DNA of 64,000 nt, from the NCBI GenBank assembly GCA_035512435.1, contig DATKDX010000028.1:13871-77870 (forward strand), in the 5' to 3' direction. Origin of the DNA: Dehalococcoidia bacterium. Its GTDB lineage: Bacteria > Chloroflexota > Dehalococcoidia > SM23-28-2 > RBG-16-64-32. A program made the translations under genes and the position numbers. Below the pieces are notes generated by a model, which worked only from the letters and a program-made list of their open reading frames with translations, had not been told where the DNA came from and made no database searches. Of the stretch, positions 13,337-48,123 are shown one piece after another. The stretch's first letter is position 1. Every line of letters starts with the position of its first letter.

Positions 13337-16336
13337 TCAAGCCTCTTCTTCTGGGGCAAAGCCCCGGCGAACTGTGTTTTCGGTGACGGCACGAGGTTCC
13401 ATGAACTGGCGGACGTAGTCCGGGCCGCCGGCTTTTTCGCCGATGCCGGAGAGGGCGGAGCCTCCGAAGGGGTGGCGCCCAGGGATGGCGCCGGTGATCT
13501 TGCGGTTGATGTAAAGGTTGCCGACGGCGAATCGGCGGCGGGCAAACGCAATGTGGCGCGGGTTACGGGAGTAGACGCCGCCGGTCAGCGCGTAGGGGGA
13601 GTTCATGGCGATCCCGAGTGCCTCATCGAAGGTGGCTGCGTGGAAAACGGCGAGGACCGGGCCGAAGATCTCCTCCTGGGCAAGCGGCGAGTCGACAGGC
13701 ACGCCTGTGAAGACGGTGGGACGGACGAAGTAGCCAGGGGAGTCCGGTGTAGATGCTTGCGCGGAGAGCGTAGCGTAGTCGCGGGCGGAATCAATGTAGG
13801 ACTGGATAGTGTCGCGGGCGGATGCGCTTATGACGGGCGAGACGTAGGTCGCAGGGTCGTGCGGGGGGCCGACGACGAGGCTTCCAACGGCGGCGTTGAG
13901 GCGGGTGAGCGCTTCATCGTAAGCGGAGCCGACGATGATCAGACGGCTGCAGGCGCTGCACTTCTGGCCGGCGTAGGCGAATGCCGAAGCAACGGCGCCG
14001 GCGACGGCCTGGTCGAGGTCAGCATCATCGTCGATGATGATGGCGTTCTTGCCACCCATCTCCGCTATGACTCGCTTGACGTTGCGGGCGTCATCGCCGG
14101 CCGTGAGCAGTTCGCGGGAGGACTTCGCAGCCGATTCGATGATGCCGAGGCCAACTTCGCTTGAGCCGGTGAAGGCGACGGTGTCGATGCCGGGATGCTC
14201 GATGAGGGCCTGGCCGACGACGCTACCGCGTCCAGGGAGGTACTGGATAGCGGCGGGCGGAACTCCAGCGTCGCGCAGGGCGCGGACGAGGTGGTAGGCG
14301 ATAATAGGCGATTCACCGGCAGGCTTGAGGATGGCCGGGTTGCCACCAGCCAGCGCGCCCGCGGTCATGCCGCCGATGAGGGCCATGGGGAAGTTCCAGG
14401 GGGCGATAACGGCGACGACACCGCGACCGCGGTGGAAGTAATCGCTGTGCTCGCCGGCGACGCCGCCCATGGTTCGTGGCGTTTCCAGCTCGATCGCCTG
14501 GTCAGCGTAGTAGCGGAGGAAATCGATGGTCTCGCGGACGTCGTCGTCCGCTTCGGCCCAGGGTTTGCCGGACTCGAACACCATGAGGGCGGCGAGATCG
14601 TAGCGGCGCTCCTCGAGAAGACCGGCGGCGTGGCGGAGGATATCGGCGCGTTCGGTCGCCGGGGTGTCACGCCAGCCGGGAAAGGCGTCGCGGCCTGCCG
14701 CCACTGCCTCGCCAACGTCAGCGAGCGTCGCCTGAGCAACGGTGCCGATGACCGTCTCGGGTTCGGCGGGATATGTAATCGCGGCGAATTCGCGGTCGGA
14801 AAGTTCGCGGTCGCCGCTAAGCAAGAGGTGGGAGTCGCCGAAGTTTTTGCGGGCGTCGGCGATGGCCTGCGACATGCGCTGGCGTACGTCGGGTACGAAG
14901 AAGGGGGCGGGCGGCGCGTTGACGAAGGCGCCCTCGCGAGGCGGAGGCGGTTCGAGTTCGTCGGGAAGCCCGAGGGCAGGGCCTCGGCCATCACCGGAGG
15001 AGGCGGCGTTGAACCACGCCTGGTTCGACGTGTTCTCCAGCAGTCGGCGGACGAGATAGGCCATGCCGGGGATGACCTGGCCTACCGGCACGTAGATGCG
15101 CGTTCGGTAACCCATTTCGCCGACGGCCGTGCGTAGGCCTTCAGCCATGCCGAAGAGCGTCTGGATCTCGATGGCGGCGGGGTCGTGGCCCGCGACTTCC
15201 CACTTAGCGATTGCCTGGGCCACGGAGTACGGGTTGTGGGAGCCGAACGCGGGCCGAAGGTGTGGATAGGCCGCTACCAGCGCGTCGGTGCAGCGGTCGT
15301 AGCAGGCGTCGGTATCGGCCTTGCGGCTCCACACCGGGACGGGCCAGTTGTTCTGATCGGCGACGATGTGCTCCTCGTCCCAGTAGGCGCCTTTGACGAG
15401 GCGGACGCTGAACGGCGCCCCTCGCCGTTCGGCGAGCGAGCGCAGGCGGGTGAGGTCCTCCTCGGCGTCGCGGGTGTATGCCTGGACGACGATGCCGGCG
15501 GCTTCGAAGTCCGCTAATTCGGGCTCGGTGAGGAGGTCGGCGAGAGTGCGATGGGCAAGGTCCTTGTAGCGGTATTGCTCGATGTCCAGGTTCATGAAGG
15601 CGCCGCGCTCCTTCGCCAGGCGGAAGAGCGGGCGGAGGCGCGAGCGAGCAGTCTCGCTGACGTAATCGGGTGCACCGGGCTCGAGGTGAGCGCAGAGGGC
15701 GCTTAGCTTGACGGAGATGTTGACGGGCGGGACGCTGGCCCAAACCTCGCCGTGGGGACTCAGTTCTGGACGGGCGGAGAGAGCTTCGATCAGCTCGCTG
15801 TAACGGGCGAGATAGGTATCGGCCTCGGCGTCGGAGAGGGTCTCTTCGCCGAGGAGGTCGACAGTGTAAGCGACGCCCTGGCGGGCGAGTTCACGGAGTG
15901 CGTTGGCGGCCTGGTCGGGCGTTTCCCCGGCGATGAAGCGGGCTGCCATGGCGAAGACGCCCTCGCGGACGACGCGGGAGAGGACGGGGCGAAAGACGGG
16001 CTGCGAAGCGAGTCCGGAAGCAGCGCCGATGATGCCGGGGCCGGCGCCGCGGAAGTATTGTCGCACGTGGTCGGCGACGGAGCGGGCGTTGCGCAGAGTG
16101 GGCAGGACGTCGACGAAGCGTAGGAGCTTGGTGCGGAAATCGGGGTCGTTGGTGGCCCAGTCGAGGAGACGGGCCTGCCACCAGGCGGGCGAAAGGGTGA
16201 GCGGAGGATGGGAATCGACGGCCCGGGCAAGGCGCTGCTCGAGCGAGCGGATCTCAGCATCGAGTGTGGTTGCGGCCATCGGTTCAATTGTACGACCGTG
16301 GAATGGGCGGGAATGTTGCGGAATTCGAACAAGCAA
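13337..16336 (-). CDS. putA: bifunctional proline dehydrogenase / L-glutamate gamma-semialdehyde (P5C) dehydrogenase PutA
   Basis: 999-aa ORF. A proline dehydrogenase region is followed by an aldehyde dehydrogenase region with a catalytic Cys motif (AGQKCSACSRL) and EMGGKNA. The start is ambiguous: TTG at 16336 or ATG at 16279. Confidence 0.85.
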   Translation of the reverse strand: MLVRIPQHSRPFHGRTIEPMAATTLDAEIRSLEQRLARAVDSHPPLTLSPAWWQARLLDWATNDPDFRTKLLRFVDVLPTLRNARSVADHVRQYFRGAGPGIIGAASGLASQPVFRPVLSRVVREGVFAMAARFIAGETPDQAANALRELARQGVAYTVDLLGEETLSDAEADTYLARYSELIEALSARPELSPHGEVWASVPPVNISVKLSALCAHLEPGAPDYVSETARSRLRPLFRLAKERGAFMNLDIEQYRYKDLAHRTLADLLTEPELADFEAAGIVVQAYTRDAEEDLTRLRSLAERRGAPFSVRLVKGAYWDEEHIVADQNNWPVPVWSRKADTDACYDRCTDALVAAYPHLRPAFGSHNPYSVAQAIAKWEVAGHDPAAIEIQTLFGMAEGLRTAVGEMGYRTRIYVPVGQVIPGMAYLVRRLLENTSNQAWFNAASSGDGRGPALGLPDELEPPPPREGAFVNAPPAPFFVPDVRQRMSQAIADARKNFGDSHLLLSGDRELSDREFAAITYPAEPETVIGTVAQATLADVGEAVAAGRDAFPGWRDTPATERADILRHAAGLLEERRYDLAALMVFESGKPWAEADDDVRETIDFLRYYADQAIELETPRTMGGVAGEHSDYFHRGRGVVAVIAPWNFPMALIGGMTAGALAGGNPAILKPAGESPIIAYHLVRALRDAGVPPAAIQYLPGRGSVVGQALIEHPGIDTVAFTGSSEVGLGIIESAAKSSRELLTAGDDARNVKRVIAEMGGKNAIIIDDDADLDQAVAGAVASAFAYAGQKCSACSRLIIVGSAYDEALTRLNAAVGSLVVGPPHDPATYVSPVISASARDTIQSYIDSARDYATLSAQASTPDSPGYFVRPTVFTGVPVDSPLAQEEIFGPVLAVFHAATFDEALGIAMNSPYALTGGVYSRNPRHIAFARRRFAVGNLYINRKITGAIPGRHPFGGSALSGIGEKAGGPDYVRQFMEPRAVTENTVRRGFAPEEEA

Positions 16337-16534
16337 GAGCGTGAAGGCGGTGACGGAGGCGGAGAGCCGAGGACCTGGGGCCTAGAACCAAGATCCAAAG
16401 CCGGCTTGTGAGCGTGGGGACTGATCGGGAAAAGCGGTCGTTACGAAGCGGCTTCCGAGCGCCAGGGGAGCAGGGAAGGAGACAAGCCCGGCAAAGAGGG
16501 GCGCCCTACATCCTGGAGCTCGGGAGCAGCTTCA

Positions 16535-17209
16535 TCAGCCGGCAAATCGATAGCCCTTACCGCGGACGGTGAGTATAAACGCGGGATGATTTACATCGTC
16601 TTCGATTTTCTCGCGAAGGCGCCCGACGTGGACGTCGACGGTGCGGGTCTGGCCAAATCCGTCGTAGCCCCAGACTTCCTGGAGGAGAGTGCCCCGATCG
16701 ATGACGCGGCCGCGGTGTTCCATCATGAAGACGAGCAGGTCGAACTCCTTGGGGCGCAGAGTCACCGTTTCGCCAGCCTTGAAGACCTCACGACGGACAA
16801 CGTCCGCCGCAACGTCGCCGCTGACGAGGACCTGCTCGGCAGGCGCCTCCGCCCAGCGGCGGAGACGGACGCGGACGCGGGCCATCAGTTCCTTCATAGA
16901 AAATGGTTTGGTTACGTAGTCGTCGGCGCCGATTTCGAGGCCAACGACGCGGTCAATCTCGTCTGTGCGCGCGGTGAGCATGATGATGGGCGCCCTCGAC
17001 TCCTTGCGCAGGGCGCGGCAGACTTCGAAGCCATGCATCTTTTCCAGCATGAGGTCGAGGATGACGAGGTCCGGCTTCTCGCCGCGGGCAAGGGATAGGG
17101 CTTCTTCGCCGTCGGACGCGGTCAGCACCTGATATCCATCACGCTCCAGACTGAAGCGCAGAGTGGCGACGAGTGTTGGTTCGTCATCGACGACGAGTAC
17201 AGTGGCCAA
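16535..17209 (-). CDS. OmpR/PhoB-family two-component response regulator (no adjacent histidine kinase)
   Basis: Receiver domain (VVDDEP...DLVILDLML...KP) plus a winged-helix trans_reg_C domain (LTVRGKGYRF). Confidence 0.9.
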   Translation of the reverse strand: MATVLVVDDEPTLVATLRFSLERDGYQVLTASDGEEALSLARGEKPDLVILDLMLEKMHGFEVCRALRKESRAPIIMLTARTDEIDRVVGLEIGADDYVTKPFSMKELMARVRVRLRRWAEAPAEQVLVSGDVAADVVRREVFKAGETVTLRPKEFDLLVFMMEHRGRVIDRGTLLQEVWGYDGFGQTRTVDVHVGRLREKIEDDVNHPAFILTVRGKGYRFAG

Positions 17210-17754
17210 TAGCTCTGTTTACCTCTGCGCCCAGCGTAGTGGAGCGTACGGGCCGGTTCTTTAACGCGAGGTTAAACGGCGTAAGGCTTTGGTTAAACGG
17301 TGGCGGCTAAGGATTCCAGGTGACGGTAACGACAGGCCGCCAAGTGGGGTCGTGTTCGCGGGAGCCGTAGCGCATGCCAGCGCCGGTAGCGTTCTCATTG
17401 GCGACATGGTCTGCCAACCGTTGTTGCCTGTGCCATCGACCCAGAGCCGGACGTCGTCATCAACCGCATAACCGACGCACGGTGTCCGTGGTGATGTACG
17501 CGCCGGCAGCGGCAAGCACGGCTGTGAGGAACGCGTAAGGCACGATGATCTTCCACCGGATGTGGCGGAAAGGGCCAGCGAAGCACGGTAGCAGACCCGT
17601 TGTCCGGGCAGCGGCAGAACGCTCATCAGTTAGACATGGCAGGGAAGTTCTTACTGCTACGCGGAAGGGGGCGTTCAGGATTGATACGTGCCCGAAAGAT
17701 GCAGGTAGGGCCTGTACACGCGGATTTCTTGGGGATTGGCCTACTGTCTGAGGG

Positions 17755-18135
17755 ATGGAATCTCAACAGACGAACCACTTGGGCCGACAGAACAGCTGGT
17801 CCCTCTTTTCCGCTCATGGCCGCGTCATCCTCTATATCGCTCTATGCCCCGACTGTACGGTCGACGGAATTGCGCAGGCTTTGAGCCTCTCTGAGCGCGG
17901 CGTGCGCCTGATCCTGCGCGACATCCGGGCGGCGGACATGGTGAAGATCAGCCGACGAAACCGCCGCCACCATTACCGCGTTAACCTGGACGCGCCACTG
18001 CTGCACCCGACGATAAAGGGGCTGACACTCCGTCCCCTGCTGGGACGGCTTGTCCATCAGGCGCAAAACGGTGACCGCGAGGAGTGCGTGCGCCTGGCCA
18101 GTAGCGGTAACCGCAAGGCAGTCGCGACCGGATGA
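17755..18135 (+). CDS. ArsR/SmtB-like winged-helix transcriptional regulator (paralog 1)
   Basis: 126 aa with an HTH and wing pattern (ILYIALCPDCTVDGIAQALSLSERGVRLILRDI...RRNRRHHYRVNL). A CxxC sits where the ArsR alpha3 metal site would be. Confidence 0.6.
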   Translation: MESQQTNHLGRQNSWSLFSAHGRVILYIALCPDCTVDGIAQALSLSERGVRLILRDIRAADMVKISRRNRRHHYRVNLDAPLLHPTIKGLTLRPLLGRLVHQAQNGDREECVRLASSGNRKAVATG

Positions 18136-18536
18136 CACAGGTCACCTCGCCCCAAAGAGAAGCGGCTGAGCGCGCGACACCAACGATCGACTGGTCGCTG
18201 CTTTCTCCCCAGGGGCGCGTGATCTTTTATGTGGCGCTATGCCCCGCCTGCACGGCGACGGAGATCGCGATGGCTCTGGGAATGACCGAACGTGGGGTGC
18301 GGTTTCTGCTGCGGGACTTGATCCGCAACGATTCGCTGCTCGTGGAGGAGCGCGGGCGGCGCCACCATTACAGGATCAACCTGGACGCGCCGCTGCTGCA
18401 CCCGACGATCCAGGGGCTGACGCTGGAGCCGGTACTGGGCAAACTGGTGGAAGAGGCGGAGCGCGAGGGCAACGCAATCTGTGATCCGGACCAGGCATCG
18501 GCAGAGCGCACTGACAGGCCCACAAACGGCGGCTGA
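18132..18536 (+). CDS. ArsR/SmtB-like winged-helix transcriptional regulator (paralog 2), translationally coupled to paralog 1
   Basis: 134 aa, about 60% identical to the upstream paralog across the HTH/wing (IFYVALCPACTATEIAMALGMTERGVRFLLRDL...RRHHYRINL). ATGA start/stop overlap at 18132-18135. Confidence 0.6.
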   Translation: MTQVTSPQREAAERATPTIDWSLLSPQGRVIFYVALCPACTATEIAMALGMTERGVRFLLRDLIRNDSLLVEERGRRHHYRINLDAPLLHPTIQGLTLEPVLGKLVEEAEREGNAICDPDQASAERTDRPTNGG

Positions 18537-18716
18537 CCAGAAGCGTCAGCCTGTTTACTTGCAACAGTCTTCCGCGCTAACCTTGTGCTGCAGGTGACGC
18601 ATATTTACTCGGCCTACAGGGCGAGCTTCGATTCATAAGTTACCCGATTCGTTGAACGATACCCGCCGGAAACCAGGCGCCGGCCAAGCCCTATTCCACC
18701 GGACCGGGAAAGTCAA

Positions 18717-20000
18717 TTGACGATCCCTCTCATACTGATCGTCCTGATCGCGGTCAATGCTCTGTATGTCGCCGCTGAGTTCTCGACGGTCAGCGCCAGG
18801 CGTAGCCGGATCCGCCAGCTGGCACAGGAGGGGAATCGCAGCGCGTCGTGGTTGCTGCCGGTGGTGGAGAACCCGCAACGGCTGGACCGCTACGTGGCAG
18901 CCTGCCAGATCGGTATCACCCTCTCTAGCCTCGTTCTCGGGGCGTACGGCCAGGCCGCGCTTCCGGGCGTCATCAGTCCGCTTCTCTCCGACTTAGGCGC
19001 AATTCGGGAGGGAGGAGCGCAGGCCGCCTCTGCAACCATCATCCTGATCGGGCTGACCTCGCTGCAGGTACTCTTCGGGGAGCTTCTGCCGAAATCGTTA
19101 GCGCTGCAGTTTACGACCCAGGTGGCGCTGCTTTGCTCCGTACCCATGGCGATATCCCTGCGCCTCTTCAGCTGGTTCATTGCGATTCTCAACGGAAGTG
19201 GCGTAGCCATTCTCCGCCTCCTGGGGACGGGCGACGCGACCCACCGTCACATCCATTCGCCGGAGGAGATTCAGTTGCTCCTGGTGGAAAGCCGAGACGG
19301 CGGGCTGCTGGAGCCAGATGAGCAACGGCGGCTGCTGAGCGCCCTATCGCTGGGCGAGCAGTCCGTCCGCGCGCTGATGGTCCCCCGCACGCGTGTCGTG
19401 TGCGTGGACGCAGACTTGCCGATGGAAGAGATCGAAGGGCAGATGCTGGACAATCCCTACACGCGCTTTCCTGTGTTCCGGGAAGCGCCGGACAACATCA
19501 TCGGCGTCCTGCACTCCAAGGACCTGGTGCGGCGCCGGCTGGAGGACGACTCCATGCCGACAATCGAAGAATTGGTCAAGGAGCCGGTGTTCGTGCCGGG
19601 GACGGTGCCTGCCGACCGCGCGATTGCCATGCTGCGCGAGCAGCACAGCCAGCAGGCCATCATCATCGACGAATATGGTGGCTTCGAGGGAATGGCAACA
19701 ATCGAGGACCTGTTGTCTGAGGTGCTGAACATCAAGACGATCCAGTCCCCGGCCGCGGAGAAGCTGGCCGACGGGCGGATCCGTGTTTCGGGGTCGATGC
19801 GACTGGACCAAGCCGCAATGTGGATTGGCTCCCAGGAAAGCGATGCCGAGACGGTCGCCGGCTTTGTGATCGAGCGGCTGGGGCACATCCCGGACCCCGA
19901 AGAGTTCATCGAAGTCAACGACATCCGCATCGAAGTGGAAAGCGTGGCCGAGCACGCGATCCGGTCCCTGCTGATTACGCCGGTGGCGGCTGGGGCCTAG
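18717..20000 (+). CDS. CNNM/CorC-HlyC family transporter (DUF21 transmembrane domain + CBS pair + CorC_HlyC domain)
   Basis: 427 aa with a DUF21 N-terminus (LIVLIAVNALYVAAEFSTVSARRSRI), a CBS pair and a C-terminal transporter-associated domain. TTG start. Confidence 0.8.
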   Translation: MTIPLILIVLIAVNALYVAAEFSTVSARRSRIRQLAQEGNRSASWLLPVVENPQRLDRYVAACQIGITLSSLVLGAYGQAALPGVISPLLSDLGAIREGGAQAASATIILIGLTSLQVLFGELLPKSLALQFTTQVALLCSVPMAISLRLFSWFIAILNGSGVAILRLLGTGDATHRHIHSPEEIQLLLVESRDGGLLEPDEQRRLLSALSLGEQSVRALMVPRTRVVCVDADLPMEEIEGQMLDNPYTRFPVFREAPDNIIGVLHSKDLVRRRLEDDSMPTIEELVKEPVFVPGTVPADRAIAMLREQHSQQAIIIDEYGGFEGMATIEDLLSEVLNIKTIQSPAAEKLADGRIRVSGSMRLDQAAMWIGSQESDAETVAGFVIERLGHIPDPEEFIEVNDIRIEVESVAEHAIRSLLITPVAAGA

Positions 20001-20002
20001 TC

Positions 20003-21337
20003 ATGGATACGGTGCTGATTCCTCTGCTGATCACGGTCGGGTTGATCGCGCTCAACGGGCTCTTTGTCGCCGCGGAGTTCGCGATCATCGGAACGTCGCG
20101 GCCGTCTGTCGAGCAAAGGGCTAAGAAGGGGGACCGGCTGGCGAGCCTGGTTTCCGGCGTTCTGCAGAACCCGCAAAACCAGGACAGGTACATCGCGACG
20201 GCGCAAATCGGTATTACGTTTGCGAGCCTGGGGCTTGGTATGTACGTGGAGCATCAGTTCGCGCACTGGATCGCGAGCGGCTTCGATTCCCTGGGCCAGG
20301 CACAGTGGATCCTATCTCACTCGCTGGCTACGGTACTGGCCATCCTCATCATCACGTACTTCCACATTGTTTTCGGCGAGATGATTCCGAAGTCGCTGGC
20401 TTTGCAACGCGCGGAAAGGACGGCGCTGCTTGTCAGCCCACCGATGCTGGCACTGAAGTACGCGTTCTATCCGCTGGTTGTAGGACTGAACGGAATCGGC
20501 AACACTGTGCTGAAACTTGTGGGCGTGGATCGCTCCAGCGGTGGGAACGAACAGTTCTATTCGCCGGAAGAGCTGCAACTGGTGGTGCGGGAGAGCCTGG
20601 AGGGGGGCCTGCTGCGCAGCGAGTCCGGGAACGTGATCCGTGAGCTTTTCGACTTCCCCGAGCTTACCGCCGGCGGAGTGATGGTGCCGCGAGTCCGCAT
20701 CAAGGGCATTCAACTGGGCGCGGAATCGGAAGCTCTGAAGGAACTGATGCGCGAATCGCCTCACACCCGCTACCCGGTCTACAAGGAGAACCTCGACCAC
20801 ATCGTAGGAATGCTTCACGCCAAGGACTTACTGCGGATCATCACATCGGGCGCGAGCGTGGAGGAGCGCACTCTCCGGGCGATCCGGTACGTCCCGGAGA
20901 CCACGCATCTGGACGTCACGCTGGCGGCGCTGAGGGAAAACGAAAGTCAGATGGTGATCGTGATGGACGAGCATGGTGGGACAGCGGGACTAATAACGAC
21001 GGAAGACCTGTACGAAGAGCTGATCGGCGAGGTGGAAGAGGAGCAAAGCTCGCCGCAGATGATGACCTGGGTGAGAGGCGGATTGTTGTCGGTGGACGGC
21101 GCGGTGCGGCTGGAGGACGTGGGCGAGGAGTTCGGCTTGGAACTGGTGCACGAAGAGGTGGACACCGTGAGCGGCCTGGTGTTGATGCTCCTGGACCGGC
21201 CGCCAAACGTGGGCGACCGCGTTACCTACGAAGGTCTATCTTTTCAGGTGACGAAGGTGGAGGGCCACGGAGTGGAGCGCTGCATGGTGAGCCGGCTGCC
21301 CGGTGCTGCACGCACAGACGACGCGGGTCCCGCCTAG
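20003..21337 (+). CDS. CNNM/CorC-HlyC family transporter, tandem paralog
   Basis: Same architecture (LIALNGLFVAAEFAIIGTSRPSVE...). The true ATG at 20003 lies 3 nt after the upstream stop; the track ORF 19820.. is a spurious 5' extension. Confidence 0.8.
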   Translation: MDTVLIPLLITVGLIALNGLFVAAEFAIIGTSRPSVEQRAKKGDRLASLVSGVLQNPQNQDRYIATAQIGITFASLGLGMYVEHQFAHWIASGFDSLGQAQWILSHSLATVLAILIITYFHIVFGEMIPKSLALQRAERTALLVSPPMLALKYAFYPLVVGLNGIGNTVLKLVGVDRSSGGNEQFYSPEELQLVVRESLEGGLLRSESGNVIRELFDFPELTAGGVMVPRVRIKGIQLGAESEALKELMRESPHTRYPVYKENLDHIVGMLHAKDLLRIITSGASVEERTLRAIRYVPETTHLDVTLAALRENESQMVIVMDEHGGTAGLITTEDLYEELIGEVEEEQSSPQMMTWVRGGLLSVDGAVRLEDVGEEFGLELVHEEVDTVSGLVLMLLDRPPNVGDRVTYEGLSFQVTKVEGHGVERCMVSRLPGAARTDDAGPA

Positions 21338-21368
21338 CCTCCTCTAACAAAGAGACCGGCCGCGGGGG

Positions 21369-22124
21369 TTGCCGCAAACCACATCAATGACGCCTTGGTA
21401 CAGTGATGCCGTGGTATTTCGGACGGTAGCCGCGATCTTGGCGCTGCTGCTCGCCGGTTGCGCTGGTGGTGACGCGACGGACCGGGCACCGACATCGACG
21501 GGCGAGCAGTTCGCCCTTCCCTGGACGCCCGGCGAGAGGTGGTTCCTCGTCGGTGGCCCGCATTGCGATAGCCCCTCGGAGGACTGCGGGGAGCAGCCGC
21601 GGTACGCGCTCGATTTCGCCCCGATAGCTCCGATCTACGGGGATGCCTGCCGCCCGGGAAGCCTTGAACCGTACTGGGTGACTGCGGCCGGCCCGGGCAT
21701 CGTCCGTGTCGCCGGCCAGTCGCTGGTGGAGATTGAGCATGAGGACGGCCGGCGAAGCGGGTACTACCACCTGCTCAGCTCGTCGATGCAGGTGACCGCA
21801 GGGGATGCGGTGGGGATGGGAGACCACCTGGGACACCCATCCTGCGAGCACCTGCGCGGAGGGGCCTCGCGGGGACTGCACGTCCACTTCTACTTCTGCG
21901 AGGCACCTGCAGGCGATGACGCATGCCTCGGGGATGCGAGCGCCGCGGCCGCGATTGAGGGGCTGACACTTTCCGGCTGGCGAGTCGTTGAAGCCGACAC
22001 GAACTACGAGGGCAGGCTGGAGCGAGAGGGGGAGCGACGGACGGCGGTGAACCTGCGTTGCGACGGCTCCGACGCTGCTTCAGCGGAGTGCGGCGAGCGG
22101 CGAAACGACATTGCCTCCGACTAG
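21369..22124 (+). CDS. lipoprotein, probable M23 (LytM-like) metallopeptidase
   Basis: Signal peptide with an LLAGC lipobox. HxxxD / HxH-like motifs (YALDFAP, HVHFYF). The start could be 21387. Confidence 0.5.
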   Translation: MPQTTSMTPWYSDAVVFRTVAAILALLLAGCAGGDATDRAPTSTGEQFALPWTPGERWFLVGGPHCDSPSEDCGEQPRYALDFAPIAPIYGDACRPGSLEPYWVTAAGPGIVRVAGQSLVEIEHEDGRRSGYYHLLSSSMQVTAGDAVGMGDHLGHPSCEHLRGGASRGLHVHFYFCEAPAGDDACLGDASAAAAIEGLTLSGWRVVEADTNYEGRLEREGERRTAVNLRCDGSDAASAECGERRNDIASD

Positions 22125-22231
22125 CGCGTGAACGTAGTGTAAACTTGTCGGCAGCCGTGACGGAGACACGTTCATGGTGCTGTGCATCCCCAGACCCAGC
22201 CAACGCTCAGTAGTGAGAAGGAGGGACCCGG

Positions 22232-23367
22232 ATGACTCTACGGCGCGCATTTTCTGCGCTTCCCCTGATGCTTATCGCACTCGCAGTCCTGGCGTTTGCC
22301 GCCTGCGGTGACGATGACGATAGCACGCCGACACCGACGAGCGGTGACGCCACGCCAGGCGATGAAACGCCTGGTGACACGGCCAGCCCCGGCGGCGGCA
22401 GCCACAGCCAGATCCTGCAGGCGGTGCTGGACCGCGGCGAACTCGTTTGCGGCGTGAACGACGCCGTCCCCGGGTTCGGCTTCCTGGAGCCGGATGGCAC
22501 GTTCTCCGGCTTTGATGTTGATTACTGCAAGGCAATTGCCGCAGCCGTGCTGGGCGATCCCGATGCCGTCGAGTACGTCCCGCTGACGGCGGAGGCGCGG
22601 CTAACGGCAGTGCAGACCGGACAAGTCGACGTGCTGATCCGCATACGACATGGACGAGCAGCCGCGACGCCAGCTCCGGCCTGAGCTTCGCGGCGACGAC
22701 GTTCTATGACGGCCAGGGCATGATGGTGCGCGCGGCGGACGGCTTCACGAGTGTTGACGACCTCGCAGACGCGACTGTCTGCACGCTGCAGGGCACAACG
22801 ACAGAGCTGAACCTGGCCGACCGTTTGCCCAACTCTGAAGCTCTGGGCTTCGAGGACAACGACACGCTGCAGCAGGCCTTCATCGAAGAGCGCTGCGACG
22901 GCTGGACGTCGGACAAGTCGCAGCTGGCGTCGCGGCGCTCCGCCTTCCCCGAGGACGCTGGTGGCCCGGAATCGCTGGTCATCCTCGAGGAGACGTTCTC
23001 CAAGGAGCCGCTTGGGCCCCTGACGATCGACAACGACTCGCAGTGGTTCGACGTGGTGAACTGGATCGTTATCGGCACGATTCTTGCCGAAGAGGCAGGC
23101 GTCACCAGCAGCAACGTCTCGGCGCAGGCTTCCGCGCCGGACAACATTGACATTGCGCGCCTTCTCGGTGTGCCGTTCGAGGGCGGTGAGGTCTTTGAGC
23201 CGGGGCTGGGCATTGATGCCGACTACATGCAGGATGTCCTTGCAGCCGTCGGCAACTACGGCGAGATCTACGACCGCAACATCACGCCGATCGGAATTGA
23301 ACGTGACGGCACCCTAAACGCCCTGTGGACAGACGGCGGCCTGATCTACGGCCCGCCGGCCCGGTAA
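22232..23367 (+). pseudogene. aapJ: general L-amino acid ABC transporter substrate-binding protein (AapJ-like), disrupted by a -1 frameshift near 22640
   Basis: The N-terminal part reads in frame 2 (lipobox AACG, ...QTGQVDVLIR) and continues in frame 1 (TTWTSSRDASSGLSFAATTFYDGQGMMV...). One base is missing in the codon after CTG-ATC-CGC. Confidence 0.7.
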
Positions 23368-43865: not shown

Positions 43866-44240
43866 CTATCCCATGCCTAGCTCGTGCAGGCGGTCTTCAT
43901 CGATGCCCATGTAATGGCCGATCTCGTGCAGCAGTGTCTTTCGAGCCTGTTTTACCATATCGTCCCACGACCCAGCGACGCGCTCATGGCTGCGCTGATA
44001 AATGACGATGATATCCGGTGGGACGAGCGAATAGCCGCCGCCGCGTTTGGTGAGGGGGACGCCGGTGTAGACGCCGAATAGGTCGTGGCCGGGTCGCAGC
44101 TTGTTCTGGCGTCGCTCGAACGGTGTCGGCGCCCAGCGCACCTGGATGTCGAGGTTGTGGAGCACCCGCTGGAACTCAGGTGGCAGCTCCTCCAGCGCCT
44201 CCTGGACGACCTGCTGGAACTCCCGGCGCGTCATTCGCAC
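43866..44240 (-). CDS. zincin-like metallopeptidase family protein (DUF1025/COG3824-like)
   Basis: HEIGHYMG (HExxH) near the C-terminus; 124 aa. Confidence 0.6.
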   Translation of the reverse strand: MRMTRREFQQVVQEALEELPPEFQRVLHNLDIQVRWAPTPFERRQNKLRPGHDLFGVYTGVPLTKRGGGYSLVPPDIIVIYQRSHERVAGSWDDMVKQARKTLLHEIGHYMGIDEDRLHELGMG

Positions 44241-44281
44241 GCGTTTATTCTAGCTAATGCGCGCCTACCGTCGATTCTGCG

Positions 44282-46504
44282 CTACTCGACAACGCCGCTG
44301 AGCGGCGGCAGACCCACGTGCGTCTCCAGGATGTTGCGCAGCATCGGGGCCACCTGCGAGGAGCCCGATTCACCCTCTTCCAGCACGCCCAGCGCCACCA
44401 GGCTCGGCGCGCTGCGGTTGGCGTAGGCCGCGAAGAACACGTGGTCGGAGCCTTCGGCCAGGTCTTCGGCCGTGCCCGACTTGCCGGCGACATCGAGGGG
44501 TGTGCCCACCCACGCCTGGTACGACGTGCCACCTGTGCTCTGCGTCACCAGGTAGAGGCCGTGGCGGATCGAGTCCAGCGTCTCCTGCGAGACGGGCAGC
44601 GGGCGGATCTCCTCCGCCTGGTACTCCTGCACGGCGACGCCACCGCCCGCCGAAGGCTCGCCGACGCGCCAGATGAGCAATGGCTTCTTGAGCACCCCAC
44701 TGCTCGCGATCGCCGAGTAAGCGTTGGTGATCTGGATGGGCGTGGCCAGCACATATCCCTGGCCGATGCCCATGTTGACCGCGTCGCCGCGGAACCACGC
44801 CTCGCCGACGTTCTCTTCCTTCCACGCCGGATCTGGCACCACGCCCGCCGCCTCTTCCATCCCGATGCCGGTGGGTTCCCCGTAGCCGAACTGGCGGATG
44901 AAGTCGGGGAATATCTGCTCGTCGATCTCGTCCATGCGCTTGGCCAGGTCGAAGAAGACCGGGTTGCAGGAGGCCATGAGCCCCTCGGCCGGCGTCAGGA
45001 AGCCGCGGTCGACCGTCTGCCAGTTCTTCTGCGGGAAGTCTTCGCCCAGGCCCGTCCAGACAGGCACGCAGTGGAAGGTGGAGCCTGTCGTGTAGTCCGT
45101 GGTCTCGACGCCGCCCGCCATCGTAACGACCTTGAACGTCGAGCCCGGCGGGTACTCTGCCAGCAGGGCGCGGTTGAGGAACGGCAAGTTCGGGTTGTTG
45201 AAGAGGTTCGTCGCCTCCTCGTCCGTCAGGCCGCGGATGAAGGAGTTCGGGTTGAAGCGGGGGTACGACGCCATGGCCACGACGGAGTTGTCCCGCGGGT
45301 CCATGACGACGACGGCGCCAACCTTGTCGCCAAGCTGTGCTTCCGCCTGCTTTTGCACGTTGAGGTCGATCGTCAGCCAGACGTCCTTGCCGGGCGTGGA
45401 CGGCGCCTCGGCGATGGTGGCGGTGATAACACCCTCGGGGCTGACGGCGGCGAGGAGGCCGCCGCGCGTGCCCGCCAGGGTGTCCTGGTACTGGCTCTCC
45501 AGGCCGGCCGAGCCGATAAGGTCGCCCGGCTGGTAACCCTCGTACGTCGGGTCCTGCAAGTCATCCTCGGTGACCTCCGACATGTAGCCGATAACGTGCG
45601 CCGCCGAGTCCTCGTGCGGGTAGAAACGCTGCGTGTCCTCCCGCACGATGATGCCGAGGTCCACCATGTCGCGGAACTTCTGAACGTCTTCGTCGGTCGT
45701 AGTGTAGGGCAGTGCGCGCACCGGCGTGAAGTAGTAGGACGGCTGGGTGTCGGCCAGGTCGAAGATCGGCCGGATCTCGCCGTCCGACGCGCCCAAGCCC
45801 GCGGCCAGCGCGGCGATGGCCGCTTCGCGGTCCGTCAGGTAGTCGACGACGAAGCCGATGACAGGCAGGTCGGCGTCCAGCGCCAGCGGCTCGCCGTTGC
45901 GATCGTAAATGGTGCCGCGGCGGGGCGAGCGCGGGAAGAAGTTGACGAGCGACTCATCGTCCAGCTGGCTGAAGTACAGCGATGGCGTCCAGACCACCCG
46001 CCACTCATCGCGCTGGACGGGCTCGCCGCCTTCCTCCGTCGCGGGCAACGTGACGGTCTCGCGGACCAGCGGTAACGCGTTCTCTTCCGGGACGTCACCA
46101 AAGAACTCGGTCTTGAAAGTGACCTTAAAGGGCACCTCGATGACGCCCTCCGGCAAGTCCTCGCCGCCCAGGATCTCCGTCTCGGCGGGAGAGCCGGTGC
46201 CGGTAAGCAGGAAGTCGAACCCGGTGATCGTCGCCGTCTCCTTGATCGCCTCGTAGCGGCTGACGAACGTCTCTTCGTCAACCGCCGCGCGCGATTCGGT
46301 GGCGACCAGTTCATACATCGCCTCGAACTGGTCCTGGCCCCAAAGCTCCAGCCAGCGGGTCGCGGCGTCGTCGGGCGTGCGGGGGCGCTCGGTCGGGCCG
46401 TTGTCGCCGTTATCACTGCCATCACACGCCGCCGCGAGGACGGCGAGCGCCAGGAGCAGCGGTACTAACAGGGTGCGTTGTGGTATCACGTTCCTGAAGA
46501 CCAT
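44282..46504 (-). CDS. class B penicillin-binding protein (transpeptidase) with lipoprotein signal and N-terminal NTF2-like domain
   Basis: AACDG lipobox. STFK active-site serine motif (GSTFKVVT), SxN, and KSGTA (KTG) motifs. Confidence 0.85.
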   Translation of the reverse strand: MVFRNVIPQRTLLVPLLLALAVLAAACDGSDNGDNGPTERPRTPDDAATRWLELWGQDQFEAMYELVATESRAAVDEETFVSRYEAIKETATITGFDFLLTGTGSPAETEILGGEDLPEGVIEVPFKVTFKTEFFGDVPEENALPLVRETVTLPATEEGGEPVQRDEWRVVWTPSLYFSQLDDESLVNFFPRSPRRGTIYDRNGEPLALDADLPVIGFVVDYLTDREAAIAALAAGLGASDGEIRPIFDLADTQPSYYFTPVRALPYTTTDEDVQKFRDMVDLGIIVREDTQRFYPHEDSAAHVIGYMSEVTEDDLQDPTYEGYQPGDLIGSAGLESQYQDTLAGTRGGLLAAVSPEGVITATIAEAPSTPGKDVWLTIDLNVQKQAEAQLGDKVGAVVVMDPRDNSVVAMASYPRFNPNSFIRGLTDEEATNLFNNPNLPFLNRALLAEYPPGSTFKVVTMAGGVETTDYTTGSTFHCVPVWTGLGEDFPQKNWQTVDRGFLTPAEGLMASCNPVFFDLAKRMDEIDEQIFPDFIRQFGYGEPTGIGMEEAAGVVPDPAWKEENVGEAWFRGDAVNMGIGQGYVLATPIQITNAYSAIASSGVLKKPLLIWRVGEPSAGGGVAVQEYQAEEIRPLPVSQETLDSIRHGLYLVTQSTGGTSYQAWVGTPLDVAGKSGTAEDLAEGSDHVFFAAYANRSAPSLVALGVLEEGESGSSQVAPMLRNILETHVGLPPLSGVVE

Positions 46505-46615
46505 TCTATGGGGGCCGTCTACACCTTCTTCACCAGATAAACGGTTGCAGTGCTCTATCGGTTCGCCCCGGCGCGCGTTTTAATTGGTAAGGCCGTTGTA
46601 CCATTCGATCAGGCG

Positions 46616-47968
46616 ATGACCACTTACGATTACGATATCCGTGACGACGTCGCTCTGCTGAAGAACGACAAGTTCCGCCGCCTCCTGCAGTCACGCCTCG
46701 CGGGTCAGACCGCCCAGAACGCGATGATCTACGCGCTCCTCATCCTTCTCGTGGAGCAGAGCGGCTCGTCGGTGCACAGCACGCTGCTCATCGTAGCCCT
46801 GACCATCCCCTCGATTTTGCTGGGCATCCCTGGCGGCGCGGTCGCCGACCTCTTGCCTCGCCGCTTCACGCTGACGCTTGGCTACCTGGGGCGCGCGGGC
46901 GTGGCGGCGGCACTCTTCTACTACAGCGGCGACCTGGTCTACCTCTATCTTGTCGTCCTCGCGCATTCCGCGATTGGCCAGTTCTTCGGGCCGGCGGAAT
47001 CGGCCACGGTGCCGGCCATCGTGCGCAAGGACCAGCTTTCGACGGCGAACTCCCTAATGATGCTGTCGCTGATGTTCGCACAGATCGCCGGCCTCGTTGT
47101 GTTAGCGCCGATCCTGATCAAGCTCATTAGCCCGGAGTCCGTGTTCATCGTCGCCGCCTGCCTGTACCTCGTGGCGACCTACATTGTCGGCTGGCTGGCG
47201 AGCGACTTCACCCGCTCCCAGGATGAGAAGCCACCTAGCATCGGCTTCGTCGACGCGATGACGCAGGGTTTCCGTATCCTGCGCACGAACCGGCACGCTT
47301 ACCTCGCGATTGTCTACCTGACGACGGGGCTCGCGCTTTCCAAGGTGTTGATCATCCTGATGCCGAAGTACACGAGGGACGTGCTGGACATCGCACCGGA
47401 GGACACGGTGTTCGTGGCGGCGCCGGCGGCGATCGGGGCTGGGGTGGGCCTGCTGATCGTCCCGCTGGCAATCAAGCTGTTCGGCGCCTGGCGGGTGGCG
47501 GCGGGGGCGTTCTTCATCTTCGTGCTGGGCCTGGTAGGGCTCGGCCTCGTCGTCTACGTACGAACGTTCATCACCAACAACTTCGACATCGGATTCTCGT
47601 TCGTGGAGGACAACTTTAGCCTCGCCACCGTCGTCACGGTGACGATGTTGCTGGCAATCCCGCTGGGCCTCTCGTTCACGGTCCTGAACGTGGCCACCCG
47701 CGTGGTGATGAACGAGCAGGCGCCGCAGGAGGCGCAGGGGCGCATCTTCGCCATGCAGATGGCGCTGGGCGACACGCTCTCGCTCTTGCCGCTGCTGCTG
47801 GTCGGCATCGTCGCGGACGTGGTCGGGGTACGGGCGACGTTGTTGGCGTCGGCGATCGCCGCGTTAGCAGCTGCCGGCTACCTCACGTTCTCCAAACGCT
47901 TCGGACCGATCGAAGAAGAGGAGGCGCCGTCACAACCGGCGGCGCCGGTGACAGAACCCGGTCTTTAG
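46616..47968 (+). CDS. MFS transporter
   Basis: 450 aa from ATG 46616, with about 12 TM segments and MFS motif A-like loops. Confidence 0.75.
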   Translation: MTTYDYDIRDDVALLKNDKFRRLLQSRLAGQTAQNAMIYALLILLVEQSGSSVHSTLLIVALTIPSILLGIPGGAVADLLPRRFTLTLGYLGRAGVAAALFYYSGDLVYLYLVVLAHSAIGQFFGPAESATVPAIVRKDQLSTANSLMMLSLMFAQIAGLVVLAPILIKLISPESVFIVAACLYLVATYIVGWLASDFTRSQDEKPPSIGFVDAMTQGFRILRTNRHAYLAIVYLTTGLALSKVLIILMPKYTRDVLDIAPEDTVFVAAPAAIGAGVGLLIVPLAIKLFGAWRVAAGAFFIFVLGLVGLGLVVYVRTFITNNFDIGFSFVEDNFSLATVVTVTMLLAIPLGLSFTVLNVATRVVMNEQAPQEAQGRIFAMQMALGDTLSLLPLLLVGIVADVVGVRATLLASAIAALAAAGYLTFSKRFGPIEEEEAPSQPAAPVTEPGL

Positions 47969-48123
47969 GCAGCCAGGCGCGTGGGCACGCGCTCCTGATC
48001 GCCGGAGTTGTCGCCGTCAGCGGCGAAGCGGGGCATGAAGCTGATAGGCAGGGGGTTCACCTTCAGCAGCAGATATGTGTTAAGTGCTGCGTATCCAAGC
48101 AGCAACGCACCAACAATTCTCAC
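47965..48123 (-). CDS. small membrane protein candidate (52 aa), below track cutoff
   Basis: GTG start preceded by a GGAGG RBS (MRIVGALLLGYAALNTYLLLKVNPLPISF...). Its stop overlaps the MFS stop. Confidence 0.3.
   Translation of the reverse strand: MRIVGALLLGYAALNTYLLLKVNPLPISFMPRFAADGDNSGDQERVPTRLAA

Follow-up and report, generated by a model that had tools for sequence, protein, structure and literature searches.

A tandem winged-helix gene pair and a CNNM transporter pair are probably independent neighbours in a Dehalococcoidia genome

Introduction

Do two small paralogous regulator genes that directly precede two paralogous CNNM transporter genes in a Dehalococcoidia genome form a dedicated metal-response system? 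An original prediction proposed that they do, describing a doubled ArsR-like sensor beside a doubled Mg/Co-type efflux protein. Such a module, if true, would have been a new regulatory unit. We analysed the four genes within a 64,000-nucleotide stretch of contig DATKDX010000028.1 (hereafter, the window) and compared them with about 100 related loci overall. The comparative evidence indicates that the adjacency is local, and we conclude that it is an ordinary juxtaposition: the regulator pair and the transporter pair are probably two independent units that are adjacent only in this lineage.

Results

Organization of the locus

The ORF list returned the four genes, all on the same strand and at the predicted positions:

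17755-18135, plus strand: sA, an ORF for a 126-aa winged-helix protein, first copy of a putative lineage-specific tandem duplicate
18132-18536, plus strand: sB, a 134-aa paralogue of sA
18717-20000, plus strand: CNNM1, 427 aa, TTG start, with DUF21/CNNM, a CBS pair and CorC_HlyC (Pfam)
20003-21337, plus strand: CNNM2, 444 aa, ATG start, with the same architecture (Pfam)

The paralogy of sA and sB was evident, at 62% identity over 90 aa (E = 8e-44, far above chance), and the sB start overlaps the sA stop by 4 nt, ATGA (GGATGACAC), as had been predicted. The CxxC motifs (CPDC at sA 31-34, CPAC in sB) and a common RRHHYR[VI]NLDAPLLHPTI[KQ]GLTL segment were likewise found. The NCBI annotation of sA spans 84 aa only (P0246); since the NCBI start would leave out the conserved N-terminal motif WSL[FL]S, the 126-aa ORF is the better call and the public annotation is truncated. 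Two details of the predicted layout required correction: CNNM1 and CNNM2 are separated by 2 nt (TAG TC ATG) rather than 3 nt, and between the regulator pair and the transporters there is no fusion but a 180-nt spacer with a terminator-like hairpin at its start.

sA and sB belong to a large winged-helix family

An AF2 model of sA showed a winged helix-turn-helix with helices at residues 20-30, 36-42 and 47-59, strands at 63-68 and 71-76, and a core pLDDT of 86-93; residues 77-91 and 108-122 were of low confidence and the tail fell below a pLDDT of 50. On this model, sA and sB are predicted winged-helix DNA-binding proteins. The ArsR-like assignment stood only in part: SmtB and CzrA were nominally the top matches both in structure comparison and by sequence profile, but MarR, ROK and IclR domains scored within 0.1-1 Z unit of them, so the fold does not tell these families apart. 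Moreover, neither protein matched Pfam HTH_5 or HTH_20 at E <= 1, and the NCBIfam metalloregulator model NF033788 (HTH_metalloreg) gave 15.5 and 15.0 bits, far below its cut-off of 55. Pfam MarR and MarR_2 did not match sA or sB either. Among 73 members of the wider family, MarR_2 and HTH_24 matched 62 and 56, against 4 for HTH_5 and 3 for HTH_20, the MarR-type matches being weak (best E = 2e-9).

The topology of the model, with helices, a beta-hairpin wing and a C-terminal alpha5, does not set ArsR/SmtB proteins (SmtB 1r1t/1r22, CzrA 1r1u) apart from these other families. sA and sB differ from ArsR/SmtB proteins in that the alpha3 CXC and alpha5 metal ligands are not conserved, and in carrying, beyond the wing, an additional NLDAPLLHPTIxGLTLRP segment that is strongly conserved. 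Compared with MarR proteins (MepR, ZitR/AdcR, OhrR), they are shorter (126-134 aa against about 140-150 aa), and the sA model does not show the long helices that MarR proteins typically have at both termini for dimerisation.

The two proteins fall in a Chloroflexota clade within a winged-helix family of roughly 100-130 aa that is very large and uncharacterised: it has 2,823 cluster representatives at E <= 1e-3, of which 769 reach E <= 1e-10, and its members carry generic source names only. Orthologues were identified for sA (P0244, 78%; P0245, 81%) and for sB (P0002, 83%; P0003, 71%). The dN/dS values of 0.16 (sA against its counterpart at locus L109) and 0.12 (sB against that at L028) point to purifying selection on both copies.

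A conserved cysteine pair

The residues conserved in the clade are, in sA numbering, Cys31, His72, His84 and Cys111. C31 was found in 55 of 56 clade members and C111 in all 56, whereas C34, the second cysteine of the CxxC, was present in 28/56. At position 31 the wider family has mostly Asn or His, and one sA orthologue, P0245, has Ser. The CxxC had been placed at the alpha3 metal position; the profile alignment to SmtB puts it near that position and not at it, C34 falling one residue and C31 four residues before SmtB Cys61. No alpha5 ligand set of the DxH...H..E type was conserved in the family alignments. A reading of the two proteins as true ArsR/SmtB metalloregulators, sensing a metal or metalloid through the CPxC at alpha3, is thus very unlikely: the low profile scores, the equally good MarR, ROK and IclR structural matches, the preference of the wider family for MarR-type models and the poor conservation of the proposed ligands all argue against it. 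Nor was any metal-handling gene found among the conserved neighbours of the sA/sB family loci.

The two outer cysteines occur together. In 127 representatives at 50% identity, aligned with hmmalign, a tail cysteine was present in 12 of the 14 with Cys31 and in 16 of the 113 without it (Fisher p = 1e-7, a value that ignores shared ancestry). A C2H2 metal site formed by C31, H72, H84 and C111 was considered and downgraded, as the cysteine pair recurs in representatives from which both His72 and His84 are absent. These patterns suggest that a thiol switch, and not an alpha3 metal site, may be formed by Cys31 and the C-terminal Cys111.

Thiol-based switches are known in two comparable systems, SqrR, with its Cys41/Cys107 tetrasulfide switch (PMC5595413), and RexT, in which alpha3 Cys41 contacts the wing residues His75 and Asn77 (PMC8960804). 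Like SqrR/BigR, in which Cys41 and Cys107 are joined by a tetrasulfide or a disulfide, sA and sB have one conserved, co-occurring cysteine just before the HTH and another in the C-terminal helix; as in RexT, the AF2 model would place Cys31 near the wing, beside a short strand paired to the one that bears His72. However, no sequence-level homology to either system was shown beyond the HTH, the cysteine spacing is 80 residues against 66 in SqrR/BigR, and the conserved neighbours of the family loci include no sulfide-oxidation gene. The long, DUF2188-fused paralogues of the family sit instead with CsbD and truncated globins.

The CNNM genes form an old pair with an unusual ion cavity

Pfam searches upheld the assignment of both downstream genes to the CNNM family, with E-values for CNNM1 and CNNM2 of 5e-43 and 1e-49 (CNNM), 5.5e-15 and 2.5e-10 (CBS), and 7e-15 and 3e-17 (CorC_HlyC); the PDB matches of CNNM1 were the MtCorB structures 7m1u/7m1t. 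The two proteins share 33% identity and appear from their sequences to be ancient paralogues, not products of a recent duplication. Wherever a locus left room downstream (68/68), the CNNM1-type gene was followed by one of CNNM2 type.

In domain architecture and in the G-E-x-x-P-K pi-helix motif, CNNM1 and CNNM2 resemble the CNNM/CorB/CorC proteins (MtCorB, TpCorC, E. coli CorC 4hg0). The TM3 motif reads GELLPK in CNNM1 and GEMIPK in CNNM2; over 80 loci, its Gly was present in 78-79 and its Glu, Pro and Lys were invariant. The Ile described as invariant in this motif (PMC8242095) is replaced by Leu in CNNM1 and Met in CNNM2. Of the MtCorB side-chain Mg2+ ligands Ser21, Ser25 and Ser71 (the last being Asn in bacteria; PMC8242095), the equivalents in both proteins are Asn, Val and Ile, with Val and Ile almost invariant in the paired subfamily. 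Two of three side-chain ligands are thus missing, and the predicted ion cavity is unlike the one in CorB/CorC proteins that export Mg2+ in the canonical way, at odds with the proposed Mg/Co-type transport. The always fixed order of two roughly 33%-identical paralogues is a further difference from these proteins. The top NCBIfam model was the polyamine exporter PaeA (NF052568), an identity that we rejected at 176.5 and 180.4 bits against an equivalog cut-off of 500.

The regulator pair and the transporter pair meet only in this lineage

Upstream of sA, on the other strand, lies a block of genes whose synteny is conserved:

13337-16336, minus strand: PutA (proline dehydrogenase / P5C dehydrogenase), downstream of the response regulator (Pfam)
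16535-17209, minus strand: OmpR-type response regulator, a conserved divergent neighbour of the short-type winged-helix gene (Pfam)
17261-17626, minus strand: remnant of a dCache/HAMP-type membrane sensor (tblastn and DNA-level conservation)

The response regulator is syntenic at L001/L019 (80% identity), L003/L021 (65%), L004 (66%) and L027, and PutA is part of the same block, at 74% identity in L001/L019 and 67% in L004. In relatives the sensor gene stands between the response regulator and the winged-helix gene, and L109 retains an intact homologue (dCache_3-HAMP-HD). In the window, the 634-aa sensor protein of L019 used as tblastn query matched only at 17411-17479, and comparison of the DNA showed a conserved block of N-terminal coding sequence.

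By contrast, the downstream side is local. Neither a tandem pair nor a CNNM gene was found in 16 clear family loci of reference genomes, with flanks up to 8 kb (a 17th, L017, is a marginal family match only), nor in further contigs, and no CNNM gene lay near family members in about 21 loci read as DNA and three contigs read as gene tables. Genes downstream of the orthologues vary (MOSC, USP-like, ABC permease, beta-lactamase, CNNM). One relative, with genes 78% and 83% identical, seems to retain both of them with their 4-nt overlap, judging from gene tables of two short contigs of one sample; there, the downstream gene is of the beta-lactamase family and on the other strand. Conversely, 0/80 CNNM-pair loci had an sA/sB homologue within 5 kb, and the genes upstream of CNNM pairs were variable, with 30 singletons among 57.

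These comparisons also bear on the idea that sA and sB work as an obligate heterodimer only, sub-functionalised after duplication. The 4-nt overlap, which implies translational coupling and is seemingly kept in the relative just mentioned, the selection on both copies, and the separation of sA-type and sB-type sequences into distinct neighbour-joining clades would all fit such a heterodimer. Yet L109 has an sA-type gene only and L028 an sB-type gene only, in both cases next to the sensor gene and so in the ancestral position, and all other family members are single genes. Both proteins keep every family-conserved residue, so each should be able to homodimerise. We consider an obligate heterodimer rather unlikely.

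Upstream regions, hairpin and spacer

Non-coding features at the two upstream regions were as follows; the sA blocks come from an alignment of the window with L109, L028 and L001:

17680-17754, plus strand: sA upstream region, with blocks conserved among orthologous loci
17680-17687, plus strand: conserved block ATTGATAC
17691-17698, plus strand: conserved block CCCGAAAG
17714-17724, plus strand: conserved block GTACACGCGGA
17739-17747, plus strand: conserved block GCCTACTGT, which holds a -10-like TACTGT
18531-18551, plus strand: terminator-like hairpin, GGCTGAC-CAGAAGC-GTCAGCC followed by TGTTTACTTG, overlapping the sB stop codon
18537-18716, plus strand: sB-CNNM1 spacer, 180 nt, beginning at the hairpin

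The TACTGT block is a candidate promoter element, and because TACTGT ends 7 nt before the ATG the sA mRNA may be leaderless. A search for palindromic operators had been suggested for both upstream regions; run on 17600-17754 and 18537-18716 (half-sites of >= 6 nt, spacer <= 12 nt), it found none. The hairpin has a predicted energy of -12.9 kcal/mol (RNAfold), but chance alone would give 1.1 sites of this kind over the region scanned, which makes it weak terminator evidence, and read-through from sB into CNNM1 is possible. No Rfam family was found in 16000-22500 at permissive E-values, nor in the whole window and four loci at gathering thresholds, so the spacer is not accounted for by any known riboswitch or leader.

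Could sA and sB nevertheless be dedicated regulators of the CNNM pair, in a cation or metalloid response module recently gained by gene rearrangement? Local regulators are often located upstream of transporters, the four genes share one strand with a gap of 180 nt, and the spacer gave no σ70-type promoter in a scan that, however, found none anywhere in 17100-18800 and is uninformative for Chloroflexota, to which it may not apply. Set against this are the hairpin at the sB stop and the comparison of the two upstream regions: those of sA and CNNM1 share no motif, k-mers and local alignment being at chance level (local score 16, shuffle mean 16.4). Elsewhere, CNNM pairs are preceded by variable regions of their own, and the window's CNNM1 leader showed no similarity to 73 other CNNM1 leaders. 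The adjacency is missing at every other family locus and at 80/80 CNNM-pair loci, and the closest relative that seemingly keeps the regulator pair has a different downstream gene. The dedicated module is thus unlikely.

Discussion

Two pairs that are probably independent, and neighbours only here, are unlikely to make a dedicated metal-response module. We propose that the first unit, sA-sB, arose by tandem duplication, specific to this lineage, of a winged-helix transcription-factor gene that otherwise stands alone, and whose ancestral position was probably divergent from the dCache-HAMP membrane sensor, the OmpR-type response regulator and PutA. sA and sB would bind DNA as dimers through the recognition helix (residues 47-59) and the wing, and would autoregulate and/or control the divergent signalling genes. 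The clade-specific Cys31/Cys111 pair would switch them, by a disulfide, a polysulfide or another thiol modification, much as in SqrR/BigR and in the alpha3-to-wing contact of RexT, and unlike a metal site at alpha3 or alpha5. The two proteins are probably made in equal amounts via translational coupling, so that mixed sA/sB dimers would be possible, yet not required. The second unit, CNNM1-CNNM2, would be an old bicistronic transporter unit of fixed order that plausibly forms a heterodimer and is preceded by a variable region of its own. Literature searches on Rv1841c/Rv1842c, DUF2188 and heterodimeric ArsR proteins returned nothing usable.

A bolder picture can be drawn, to which we give little credence: the Cys31/Cys111 Chloroflexota clade would be a new thiol-switch branch of winged-helix regulators responding to redox state, NO or persulfide; the paralogues fused to DUF2188 would act in stress cassettes with truncated globins and CsbD; sA and sB would form a mixed dimer in this lineage; and CNNM1-CNNM2, having lost two Mg2+ ligands, would work as an obligate heterodimer and export something other than Mg2+.

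Independently of that picture, the sA/sB family comprises thousands of 50%-identity clusters and is without a dedicated model or a characterised member. Within it, one Chloroflexota clade has a coupled pair of cysteines and shows links to two-component genes, truncated globins and CsbD. As for the transporters, a paired CNNM subfamily that is hydrophobic at two Mg2+-ligand positions calls for caution on the automatic annotation 'Mg/Co efflux', and the constant, ordered pairing of CNNM1 with CNNM2 suggests that heteromeric CNNM transporters may exist.

A real four-gene layout made of two separable pairs

Two tandem small winged-helix genes, sA and sB, are followed in the window, part of a Dehalococcoidia MAG, by two transporter genes, CNNM1 and CNNM2, and the ORF list shows that this four-gene layout is real:

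17755-18135, sA, 126 aa
18132-18536, sB, 134 aa
18717-20000, CNNM1, 427 aa, TTG start
20003-21337, CNNM2, 444 aa, ATG start at 20003

As originally predicted, the small genes are coupled by an ATGA shared between the sA stop and the sB start, and their products are paralogues (62% identity over 90 aa, E = 8e-44). Pfam also confirmed CNNM/DUF21, CBS and CorC_HlyC domains in both transporters, which are only 33% identical and whose genes meet at a TAG, TC, ATG junction. Describing the two pairs as fused overstates the case, since a spacer of 180 nt lies between sB and CNNM1. The sB product is 100% identical to an NCBI MAG entry, "hypothetical protein VMR52_06370". The public annotation of sA, VMR52_06365 (P0246), covers 84 aa only: its start falls within the HTH, leaving out the conserved WSLFS...CPDC region.

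Local co-regulation of sA/sB and the CNNM pair in this one genome is possible but improbable. We found no palindromic operator in either intergenic region (upstream of sA and between sB and CNNM1), and the regions upstream of sA and CNNM1 showed no similarity above chance (local score of 16 for a shuffle mean of 16.4). Several blocks are common to the upstream regions of sA-type orthologues; none of them recurs before CNNM1. A -10-like TA(C/T)(T/G)GT block ends 6-7 nt before the ATG in 3 of 4 aligned loci, which suggests that sA-type genes may produce a leaderless mRNA. Rfam gave zero family matches at the locus. A 7-bp GC-rich hairpin followed by TGTTTACTTG lies across the sB stop (18531-18551, -12.9 kcal/mol), and is weak evidence, as chance alone predicts about one such site in the region scanned.

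The winged-helix genes have other neighbours in relatives

The original prediction saw in the four genes a dedicated metal-response module, a proposal that conflicts with gene neighbourhoods on both sides: CNNM is absent from the other sA/sB-family loci compared, and no sA/sB homologue lies within 5 kb at 80 CNNM1-type loci. A scan of 185,579 species genomes yielded 17 loci carrying relatives of sA/sB (16 clear matches and one marginal, L017), 16 of them in Chloroflexota or Dehalococcoidia MAGs and one on a 3-kb contig binned as Terriglobales. At these 17 loci there was neither a tandem second copy nor a CNNM gene within up to 8 kb; several genomes contained two or three paralogues.

The conserved context of the short, sA/sB-like type lies upstream and is divergent, consisting of an OmpR-type response regulator and then PutA. 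The response regulator is 80% identical to that of the window in L001/L019, 65% in L003/L021 and 66% in L004, and is also found in L027. A dCache/HAMP membrane sensor gene stands directly opposite the winged-helix gene in L001/L019, L028 and L109; the window retains only a remnant (17261-17626, minus strand). This remnant is a 121-aa ORF with only two recognisable parts, the N-terminal transmembrane-coding block and a C-terminal stretch of 23 aa; the intact form in relatives is ~600-634 aa and is encoded between the response regulator and winged-helix genes. The sensor homologue at L019:5822-7726 shares 70% identity over its first 320 aa with the dCache_3-HAMP-HD protein of L109; its HD domain has been lost and replaced by a long linker rich in Thr and Pro, with a C-terminal domain of unrelated type.

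Two sequence elements were observed near these genes. In the window, the response regulator gene (start at 17209, minus strand) is preceded at 61-91 nt by a perfect direct repeat, GGTTAAACGG (17270-17279 and 17291-17300, 21-nt spacing). TGTTAT(G/C)C repeats occur at related loci, with the 21-nt spacing also in L004, and these repeats may be response-regulator boxes. Separately, four loci (L002:4174-4234, L003:7797-7860, L004:3271-3327 and L027:5864-5929) share a conserved ~60-nt element, GCTCCCG...CGTCGCCGCACCCCCGTCGATG...GGGAGCC with a T-run, 80-140 nt before the short-type gene; the window lacks it. The element resembles a terminator or a small RNA, has no Rfam match and, with four sequences only, no covariation.

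Downstream of the short-type genes, a different gene is found each time:

L019, MOSC
L021 and L027, ABC permease, opposite strand
L109, USP-like gene
Contig of P0002 (an sB orthologue), beta-lactamase-family gene, opposite strand
Only the window and a read assembly from its own organism (100% identical), CNNM

One relative seems to have the tandem pair without the transporters, because on two short contigs of one metagenome an sA orthologue (78%) is followed, and an sB orthologue (83%) preceded, by a 4-nt-overlapping gene.

The long paralogues fused to DUF2188 have another context, which also recurs (L005-L016, L022-L026). CsbD is upstream at most of these loci and a truncated globin (Bac_globin) immediately before or after at about half; in L007 (fusion at L007:2185-3279) and in the relative P0064 the globin is fused in frame to the regulator C-terminus. 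This CsbD/truncated-globin context points to a cassette for O2, NO or redox stress.

The CNNM pair is a self-contained unit with changed Mg2+-ligand positions

A metagenome scan with CNNM1 retrieved the 80 loci (L029-L108, 37-59% identity), none with an sA/sB homologue within 5 kb. Wherever the locus extended at least 400 nt further downstream (68 loci), a second CNNM gene came next, and it always scored higher against CNNM2 than against CNNM1. The gene upstream of the pair is highly variable (30 singletons among 57), on either strand and usually 170-800 nt away. The CNNM pair is thus an ancient, self-contained two-gene unit of fixed order.

Alignment to MtCorB (7m1t/7m1u) shows the G-E-x-x-P-K pi-helix motif intact in the two window proteins, which have Asn, Val and Ile at the positions of the Mg2+ ligands Ser21, Ser25 and Ser71 (Asn in bacteria). 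Over the 80 loci, this Val and Ile hardly vary in either member of the pair. The top NCBIfam model for CNNM1 and CNNM2 is the polyamine exporter PaeA, well under its cut-off. The label of Mg/Co-type efflux is unsafe because of these ligand replacements and of PaeA as the best model. The gene order and ligand changes (window 18717-21337; L029-L108) hint at a heteromeric transporter with a different substrate.

Two further features of the window were recorded. An SBP_bac_3 solute-binding gene (22232-23367) is interrupted near 22640-22650 by an apparent deletion of 1 nt that leaves two ORFs (cgc-ata-cg is read where cgc-aat-acg would yield ...VLIRNTTWT...); the gene is either a pseudogene or was misassembled at a homopolymer. 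GC skew stays positive over the first ~46 kb and then turns negative, with a cumulative peak at 44-46 kb; the change at ~44000-48000 may mark a strand switch linked to replication or a shift in gene orientation.

sA and sB are predicted winged-helix proteins between ArsR and MarR

Pfam searches of sA and sB gave zero matches above threshold. An AF2 model of sA, built from a 42-sequence alignment, has a confident core (residues ~20-78, pLDDT 86-93) with winged-helix topology (helices 20-30, 36-42 and 47-59; strands 63-68 and 71-76); confidence is low in the highly conserved NLDAPLLHPTIxGLTL segment and the C-terminal tail. SmtB and CzrA were the top Foldseek matches in the PDB, yet only at E 2.6e-3 and TM 0.44-0.58, and the family profile matched SmtB (E 7e-4) and a MarR protein (E 1.3e-3) among PDB sequences. 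NCBIfam HTH_metalloreg scored 15 bits for the small proteins (cut-off 55). On these structure and profile results, ArsR and MarR cannot be told apart.

With sB as query, a word-indexed search turned up 85 relatives; every one came from a metagenome or a Chloroflexota MAG, and roughly half had an N-terminal DUF2188 domain. An exhaustive profile search returned 2,823 50%-identity cluster representatives at E <= 1e-3 (769 at E <= 1e-10), with the consensus W.L.S.HG.VLFYIA..P..T.REIA..L.LTER.V..I..DL..AGML.V.R.GRR..Y.VN.DA...HP. The only names they carry in their sources are "helix-turn-helix domain-containing", "winged helix", "MarR" or "IclR", and weak Pfam matches among 73 members were to MarR_2 (62/73), HTH_24 (56/73) and HTH_5 (4/73). 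The proposed ArsR-like regulators are predicted winged-helix DNA binders lying between ArsR and MarR; ArsR/SmtB membership is not demonstrable.

A conserved cysteine pair is the likely sensor element

The CxxC had been proposed as an alpha3 metal site. On alignment to SmtB, Cys34 and Cys31 (sA numbering) fall 1 and 4 residues before Cys61. Within the Chloroflexota clade, Cys111 is conserved in 56/56 members and Cys31, His72 and His84 in 55/56 each; Cys34, the second cysteine of the motif, occurs in only 28/56. Across the wider family, Asn, His or Cys occupies position 31 and Asn or His position 72, and Cys111 is missing. A cysteine ~25 residues past the HP motif is present in 12/14 representatives with Cys31 vs 16/113 without (n=127; Fisher p = 1e-7, uncorrected for phylogeny), and the pair still co-occurs in representatives that have neither His residue. 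Given this clade conservation and co-occurrence, the meaningful feature is the Cys31/Cys111 pair, not the alpha3 CxxC.

SqrR/BigR link a cysteine ahead of the HTH to another in alpha5 through a tetrasulfide or disulfide (PMC5595413), and in RexT the alpha3 cysteine touches wing His and Asn residues (PMC8960804). We infer that these thiol-switch ArsR-type sensors are the nearest mechanistic precedents; by analogy, the sensor element of sA/sB is likely the Cys31/Cys111 thiol pair.

Each copy is maintained and can stand alone

In a neighbour-joining tree (no bootstrap support), sA grouped with P0244 and P0245 and sB with P0002 and P0003, while P0004, P0005 and P0006 were about equally distant from both. 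The dN/dS values against the orthologue (0.16 for sA and 0.12 for sB, with dS near saturation) indicate purifying selection on each copy. Next to the sensor gene, at the equivalent position, L109 has an sA-type gene only and L028 an sB-type gene only, so each copy can exist without the other. Mixed sA/sB dimers, as originally envisaged, are plausible here and probably not obligatory.

All together, the original observation was correct and its domain guesses broadly right; a module of doubled sensor and doubled Mg/Co exporter is unsupported. The best reading is that two units lie side by side by chance or recent juxtaposition. The first is an uncharacterised winged-helix regulator with a lineage-specific tandem duplication, whose conserved partners are signalling and stress genes; the second is the old CNNM1-CNNM2 pair, whose ion site departs from the canonical one.
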